A DNA stretch of 64,000 nucleotides, from the NCBI RefSeq assembly GCF_003334815.1, contig NZ_QOWO01000018.1; one strand, written 5' to 3'. Source of the stretch: Escherichia coli. GTDB lineage: Bacteria > Pseudomonadota > Gammaproteobacteria > Enterobacterales > Enterobacteriaceae. This document shows positions 12,349 to 12,379 of this stretch, piece by piece. The notes beneath the pieces were generated by a model, which had not been told where the DNA came from, did not search any database, and saw only the letters and a list, made by a program, of their open reading frames with translations. The position numbers and the translations under genes are program-made. Every line of letters starts with the position of its first letter. Position 1 is the stretch's first letter.

Positions 12349-12379
12349 GGTAAAGCGGTTAACAGGCGGCAAAACTTTA
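12349..12379 (-). promoter_or_regulatory. Candidate sigma-28 (FliA/LafS) promoter for lfgM-lfgN
   Basis: Minus strand reads TTAAAGTTTT (perfect TAAAGTTT -35) followed 11 nt later by aaccgctt (weak -10, CCG core only); about 30 nt upstream of lfgM. Confidence 0.3.

Follow-up and report, generated by a model that had tools for sequence, protein, structure and literature searches.

A second flagellar locus, Flag-2, is present in about one in four complete E. coli genomes; its function there is unclear, and its expression in E. coli is unsettled (PMC11420993). We asked which promoters within this locus could be served by its own sigma-28 factor, LafS, in a 64,000-nt stretch of E. coli DNA (hereafter, the window). 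An earlier note had proposed sigma-28-type promoters upstream of lfgMN and lafA, with a predicted lateral sigma factor as their reader, and had described their -10 boxes as poor.

The window carries an intact E. coli Flag-2 (lateral flagella) locus, encoding lafS, lfgM, and lafK (Table 1). Bases 11500-13200 match 1280 of the 5426 complete E. coli genomes, among them strain 300709, which is 99.9% identical over this segment and annotates flgA, flgM, and flgN there as parts of a second flagellar locus. The gene map was drawn from the neighborhood annotation in this 99.9%-identical strain together with the list of open reading frames.

Table 1. Genes, predicted promoters, and other elements of the Flag-2 locus, in coordinates of the window.
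Feature	Position	Strand	Details
lafK	936-1922	+	
lfiE-J	1937-7398	+	
Two modification genes	7914-10358, 10537-11466	-	between lfiJ and lfgN
lfgN	11594-12022	-	downstream of lfgM
lfgM	12035-12313	-	anti-sigma-28; first gene 3' of the 12351-12380 promoter
lfgA	12394-13131	-	
lfgB-J	13213-19925	+	
lfgK	20229-21605	+	ATG at 20229; lfgK-lfgL (hook-associated proteins), 20229-22549
lfgL	ends 22549	+	
lafW	after lfgL	+	
LafZ-like regulator	23602-24444	-	
lafA	24930-25844	+	lateral flagellin
lafB-F	after lafA	+	
lafS	29735-30451	+	annotated FliA/WhiG family sigma factor in the 99.9%-identical strain
lafT, lafU	after lafS	+	
dinB	after lafU	+	
Predicted LafS class-3 promoter of lfgMN	12351..12380	-	matrix and EM motif; -35 TAAAGTTT 12379..12372; 12-nt spacer 12371..12360; -10 ACCGCTTT 12359..12352; predicted start about 12342-12346
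Predicted LafS class-3 promoter of lfgKL	20168..20197	+	matrix, 21.6 bits; -35 TTAAGAAT 20169-20176; 12-nt spacer 20177-20188; -10 GCCGCTTT 20189-20196; predicted start about 20202-20206
Predicted LafS class-3 promoter of lafA	24857..24885	+	lfgM-trained matrix, 22.9 bits; -35 TTAAGTTT 24858-24865; 11-nt spacer GCTCCCGAGGT 24866-24876; -10 GTCGTTTT 24877-24884; predicted start about 24890-24894
Perfect sigma-54 motif TGGCAC-N5-TTGC	13161-13175	+	upstream of lfgB
Perfect sigma-54 motif TGGCAC-N5-TTGC	26088..26102	+	upstream of lafB
One-mismatch sigma-54 motif CGGCAC-N5-TTGC	11516-11502	-	upstream of the hypothetical gene 10537-11466
REP/BIME-type palindromic elements	14696-14838, 16779-16856, 17643-17845, 19926-20160, 25845-25960		in intergenic gaps
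Long GC-rich imperfect inverted repeat	10359-10536		CCCTCACCCTAACCCTCTCCCC...GGGAGAGGGTTGGGGTGAGGG; between a glycosyltransferase gene and a hypothetical gene

Several features of the locus lie apart from the promoter question. In several E. coli assemblies a 400-aa open reading frame joins a FliL domain to a region 100% identical to LafS, presumably a LafF-LafS fusion produced by a frameshift late in lafF; the two genes are separate and unfused in the window (lafF-lafS, 29248-30451). Many intergenic gaps of the locus hold palindromic elements of the REP/BIME type, which Rfam names naRNA4 and ES036 (e.g. 20015-20092 at 83.9 bits), and the lfgJ-lfgK gap of strain 300709 is 118 bp longer than that of the window, with the lfgK promoter still kept. 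The inverted repeat at 10359-10536 resembles E. coli repeats of the Box-C type.

In the 80-nt gap between lfgA and lfgM, a -35 element identical to TAAAGTTT (8/8) lies on the minus strand, 14 nt past the lfgA stop codon, as had been claimed. The minus strand of this gap reads ...GAT TAAAGTTT TGCCGCCTGTTA ACCGCTTT ACCGG..., and the 11-nt spacer originally assigned to it is one base out of register: that reading gives the -10 octamer AACCGCTT, with a 1/8 match to the canonical GCCGATAA, versus 4/8 for the octamer ACCGCTTT that follows a 12-nt spacer. The predicted transcription start is placed by analogy with sigma-28, whose -10 spans -15 to -8. The site occupies the same place as K-12 PflgM (TAAAGATT-N11-GCCGATAA) in the flgA-flgM gap. 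About 7 nt 3' of the lfgM -10, many species share a small conserved TAA (about 12344-12342 on the minus strand of the window), which may be the start-site region.

The arrangement described upstream of lafA, TTAAGTTT-N11-GTCGTTTT, is present at 24858-24884 and ends 45 nt 5' of the lafA ATG. It had been ranked as the weaker of the two sites; with a common scoring matrix (described below) it is not markedly so (22.9 versus 25.9 bits for lfgM), and its -10 GTCGTTTT equals the consensus of the flagellin class. An equivalent site, 45-60 nt 5' of the flagellin ATG, was found in 52 of the 54 loci with a LafA homologue. In many Flag-2 loci the flagellin gene is preceded by a tandem pair of LafS-type sites, the proximal about 45-80 nt and the distal about 150-380 nt 5' of the ATG (L017, L022, L027, L030, L033, L034, L037, L040, L041, L043, L044, L047, L048, L051, L054, L055, L057, and L075), and the window has the proximal one alone.

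Reading the Flag-2 intergenic regions side by side revealed a third site, additional to the two of the earlier note, upstream of lfgK. Its equivalent precedes lfgK in 60 of 74 loci, 32-101 nt 5' of the ATG.

The three sites have a sigma-28-like upstream half and an unusual downstream half. Against TAAAGTTT, the -35 octamers match at 8/8 (lfgM), 7/8 (lafA, TTAAGTTT), and 5/8 (lfgK, TTAAGAAT) positions, and the spacers are 12 nt (lfgM and lfgK) or 11 nt (lafA), with 12 nt dominant across loci. The canonical -10 GCCGATAA with its CGA core is found at none of them: ACCGCTTT, GCCGCTTT, and GTCGTTTT retain a GCCG-like half, have C or T instead of A(-11), and have TTT instead of TAA. The sites also stand upstream of late genes, in positions homologous to K-12 PflgM, PflgK (TCAAGTCC-N11-GCCGATAA), and PfliC (TAAAGGTT-N11-GACGATAA), in a locus that encodes both a cognate sigma factor, lafS, and its anti-sigma factor, lfgM, and their motif is common to the late genes of other lateral and Flag-2 systems. 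As a description of these sites the canonical sigma-28 consensus was dropped, with TAAAGTTT-N11-GCCGATAA giving no match at up to 3 mismatches in the whole 64-kb window.

The pattern common to the lfgM, lfgK, and lafA sites, TWAAG-N15/16-YCGYTTT, is found at exactly 3 places in the 64 kb, compared with a mean of 0.18 in dinucleotide-shuffled sequence, and 0 of 200 shuffles reached 3. This composite pattern was defined after inspecting the three sites, and independent evidence was therefore sought in other species. A two-block matrix was built solely from the lfgM upstream sites of other species and used to scan both strands of the window. Only three matches reached at least 14 bits, lfgM (25.9 bits, the top score in the window), lafA (22.9), and lfgK (21.6), all in the correct orientation and 25-45 nt 5' of their genes; the next best match scored 9.5 bits. 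In 200 block-shuffled windows the best score had a mean of 14.0, a 95th percentile of 18.0, and a maximum of 21.9 bits. A fourth match to the loose pattern, at 24709..24682 on the minus strand upstream of the LafZ-like regulator, scored below 9 bits with the matrix and was taken as chance. A promoter for lafT and lafU was also sought; the matrix scan returned no LafS-type site of at least 9 bits inside lafS or before lafT.

Other elements were looked for at the same places. No sigma-54 promoter motif (GG-N10-GC; TGGCAC-N5-TTGC) was found at the three sites, no sigma-70-like site (TTGACA-N17-TATAAT) in 11500-13300, and no intrinsic terminator in the lfgA-lfgM gap, whose predicted RNA fold was no better than that of shuffled sequences (z = +0.63). 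No Rfam family matched at any of the three sites, the REP-derived naRNA4 being the only match nearby. A sigma-70 promoter, a terminator, an Rfam element, and an RNA fold were thus each considered, and none accounts for the conservation described below.

For the comparison across species, species-representative genomes were scanned with LfgF, which yielded 78 loci ranging from Escherichia and Citrobacter to Enterobacter, Kluyvera, Lelliottia, Cedecea, Pantoea, Erwinia, Yersinia, Mangrovibacter, and Tatumella, nearly all of them Flag-2 as judged by the LafW, LafZ, and LafA homologues that they carry. Every locus that has both lfgA and lfgN has an lfgM-like open reading frame between them, and the DNA upstream of lfgM cannot be aligned across genera save for two short blocks. 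For 57 non-redundant Flag-2 loci, the 160 nt preceding lfgM were searched de novo for motifs by EM. Seeded from sequences other than the window, the search converged on TTAAGTTT(T)-N12-G(T/C)CGCTTT(A), conserved in about 52 of the 57. The two blocks carry 1.28 and 1.14 bits per column versus 0.21-0.31 in the spacer and flanks, and the lfgM site of the window scores 31.3 bits with this motif, a value typical of the set. At the position aligned to A(-11) of GCCGATAA, the frequencies in the 57 loci are 0.83 for C, 0.16 for T, and 0.00 for A. In one locus, that of Escherichia sp. MOD1-EC7003 (L007), an insertion of ~1.9 kb with a 1.4-kb open reading frame, probably an insertion sequence, parts lfgA from lfgM, and the lfgM promoter motif is intact beside lfgM despite it.

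Applied to all 78 loci (3.06 Mb, both strands counted), the matrix gave 235 matches, of which about 87% lie upstream of flagellin genes (71), lfgK (60), or lfgM/N (71). Among the 31 unassigned matches, the strong ones are mostly either lfgM promoters that have a wider gap or flagellin sites at a locus end, where the gene is cut by the end or presumed just beyond it. The consensus sequences are T(T/A)AAGTTT (-35) and G(T/C)CGCTtT (-10) for the lfgM class, TTAAGa(A/T)t and G(C/T)CGCTTT for the lfgK class, and TTAA(T/G)TT and G(T/C)CG(T/C)(T/C)TT for the lafA class; these base frequencies are partly circular, the matrix itself having selected the sites, and the locations are not. The motif is non-random, conserved in sequence and position over more than 60 Enterobacterales species, and restricted to these three operons. 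The -10 boxes that had been called poor are not poor; they fit a distinct, highly conserved LafS-type consensus, G(T/C)CG(C/T)TTT.

The same motif accompanies LafS homologues beyond Enterobacterales. Homologues with 41-45% identity to LafS in the alignment are encoded in lateral-type loci of Shewanella piezotolerans WP3, Metapseudomonas otitidis, and Photobacterium lutimaris, the last a member of Vibrionaceae that served as a proxy for V. parahaemolyticus, and the flagellin genes of these loci are preceded by TTCAGTTT-N11-GTCGTTTTA, TTTAAGGC-N12-GGTCGCTTTC, and TTTAAGGG...GTCGTTTTA, respectively. In two distant Burkholderiales loci also found with LfgF, L077 (- 1112) and L079 (- 6019), the motif is of the canonical type, CTAAAG...GCCGAAA, rather than having a LafS-type -10. 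The variant -10 therefore travels with the LafS lineage.

LafS matches solved FliA structures (E about 1e-30) and was compared with the P. aeruginosa and E. coli sigma-28 open complexes (PDB 9wsm and 6pmi). In the P. aeruginosa complex, where the -10 spans (-15)GCCGATAA(-8), the upstream GC is read by R97, and R80 and D87 make contacts at -12 and -13; the flipped-out A(-11) stacks on Y76 and is also contacted by the backbone of D66, and H100, R101, and R104 of sigma-3 touch the template strand (PMC12784957). LafS retains the equivalents of Y76, R80, R82, D87, D93, and R97, and the conserved GYCG half of the Flag-2 -10 is thus consistent with the retention of the residues that read the GCCG half (R97, R80, D87, and Y76). 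A nearby segment differs, with DWRPRQLRQ(K/Q)xH in the LafS family compared with DW(V/A)PRSV(R/H)RNxR in FliA: all nine aligned LafS-family sequences have Q at the position of R101 and the extra R of DWRPR, all nine are without D66, and eight of nine have H at R104. These changes, a correlative observation, suggest that the downstream -10 half is read differently.

To our knowledge, all characterized sigma-28 (and sigma-70) promoters present a flipped-out adenine at -11. Our tentative proposal, which we hold at slightly less than even confidence, is that the LafS family has an orthogonal -10 specificity, GYCG(C/T)TTT with an invariant pyrimidine at -11, that goes with the changes in regions 2.3-3.0 (loss of D66, R101Q, and R104H). 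If true, it would offer a mechanism by which two sigma-28/FlgM circuits operate in one cell without cross-talk, as well as a ready-made orthogonal set of sigma factor, promoter, and anti-sigma factor.

Taken together, the three sites upstream of lfgMN, lfgKL, and lafA are very probably the class-3 promoters of Flag-2, read by the predicted LafS holoenzyme; we infer the identity of the reader from co-occurrence and analogy. The earlier proposal of sigma-28-type promoters for lfgMN and lafA with a lateral sigma factor as the predicted reader is strongly supported by the comparative evidence and agrees with the lateral regulon of Plesiomonas (PMC11242183). One might object that the individual octamers are found at chance frequency in the window (TAAAGTTT 2 versus 1.6 expected, TTAAGTTT 3 versus 1.5 expected) and that the canonical consensus is unmatched, so that the sites could be a chance resemblance to a sigma-28 -35 without function. 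This reading is effectively refuted, and we give it next to no credence, given the excess of composite matches over shuffled sequence, scores above the 95th percentile of the shuffle maxima, and a motif kept over more than 60 species amid intergenic DNA that cannot be aligned.

The other alternatives accept the motif and assign it to another protein. It could be read by the primary FliA of flag-1, with the Flag-2 late genes slaved to the primary system, and the -35 half (TAAAGTTT or TTAAGTTT) and the GCCG-like start of the -10 do resemble FliA promoters. We consider this unlikely: C or T stands in place of the flipped A(-11) and TTT in place of TAA, every site differs from the FliA consensus at more than 3 positions, and conversely K-12 PflgM scores just 7.7 bits with the Flag-2 matrix. 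In addition, the motif is found beside LafS homologues in Shewanella, Photobacterium, and Metapseudomonas, outside Enterobacterales, and polar and lateral systems are reported to share no regulators except RpoN (PMC3930126). Conservation by itself is silent on the binding protein, and the two blocks might form the operator of a DNA-binding regulator (e.g. the LafZ-like one) rather than a promoter core. A fixed 11-12 nt spacer, a single orientation, and a fixed short distance of about 25-60 nt to the start codons all argue against an operator, as does the identity of the upstream block with the sigma-28 -35 in sites placed like the FliA promoters of flag-1; 11500-13300, moreover, holds no sigma-70-like promoter for an operator to regulate. 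We therefore regard the operator reading as very unlikely.

With LafS-dependent class-3 promoters as the preferred reading, the predicted regulatory hierarchy of E. coli Flag-2 is complete. The three sigma-54 motifs in Table 1 are likely LafK-dependent class-2 promoters. By analogy with other lateral systems, LafK and sigma-54 would first transcribe the hook-basal-body genes and the lafB...lafS operon; lafBCDEF-lafS-lafTU would thus be class 2 and would supply LafS to the class-3 promoters. LfgM would keep LafS inactive until LfgM is exported. RNA polymerase with LafS would recognize T(T/A)AAGTTT-N11-12-G(T/C)CG(C/T)TTT(A), and free LafS would then fire the three promoters, giving flagellin, the hook-filament junction proteins, and more LfgM and LfgN.

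Exact candidate promoter coordinates are now given for lfgMN, lfgKL, and lafA, and the matrix, which finds LafS-type promoters with very few false positives, can be used to look for a LafS regulon outside the locus. Promoters of lateral systems should not be judged by how well they match the FliA consensus, as the -10 of the lateral sigma-28 lineage is recognizably different. In a full-text literature search whose reach did not extend to key older papers, no description was found of a GYCGYTTT -10 or of any E. coli Flag-2 promoter, and the full-text search on lafA transcription start mapping and on FliA2 regulons returned no description of the variant -10. For Vibrio or Aeromonas the variant consensus may already have been published; if so, only the sites in E. 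coli and the wide conservation of the motif are new here.

Compared with the FliA class-3 promoters of E. coli and Salmonella (TAAAGTTT-N11-GCCGATAA), the Flag-2 sites have the same gene positions, and the -35 TAAAG(T)TT and the first -10 half (GCCG or GYCG) are common to both; in both systems, too, the anti-sigma gene is controlled by its own sigma factor. In contrast, the second -10 half is CTTT or TTTT in Flag-2 versus ATAA in FliA promoters, with a pyrimidine where FliA has the flipped A(-11), and most spacers are 12 nt long rather than 11. We infer that this altered half (CTTT for ATAA, pyrimidine at -11) keeps the LafS and FliA regulons apart, and the different -10 plausibly provides insulation between the two flagellar regulons.

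The three-tier order proposed here, from LafK/sigma-54 to a lateral sigma-28, is that of the lateral systems of V. parahaemolyticus, Aeromonas hydrophila, and Plesiomonas shigelloides; in the V. parahaemolyticus model LafK and sigma-54 make the lateral sigma-28 (PMC3658858, PMC4481668). RNA-seq of a fliA_L deletion in Plesiomonas shigelloides showed that fliC_L, flgMN_L, flgKL_L, and fliD...lafTU need the lateral sigma-28 (PMC11242183). The first three are the same operons that carry the sites in the window; the fourth differs, being FliA_L-dependent in Plesiomonas (PMC11242183), whereas lafB of the window is preceded by a perfect sigma-54 motif and by no LafS-type site, in agreement with the V. 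parahaemolyticus model. It is established for Vibrio, Aeromonas, and Plesiomonas that a dedicated sigma-28 controls the lateral class-3 genes, and the E. coli sites are expected members of this group.
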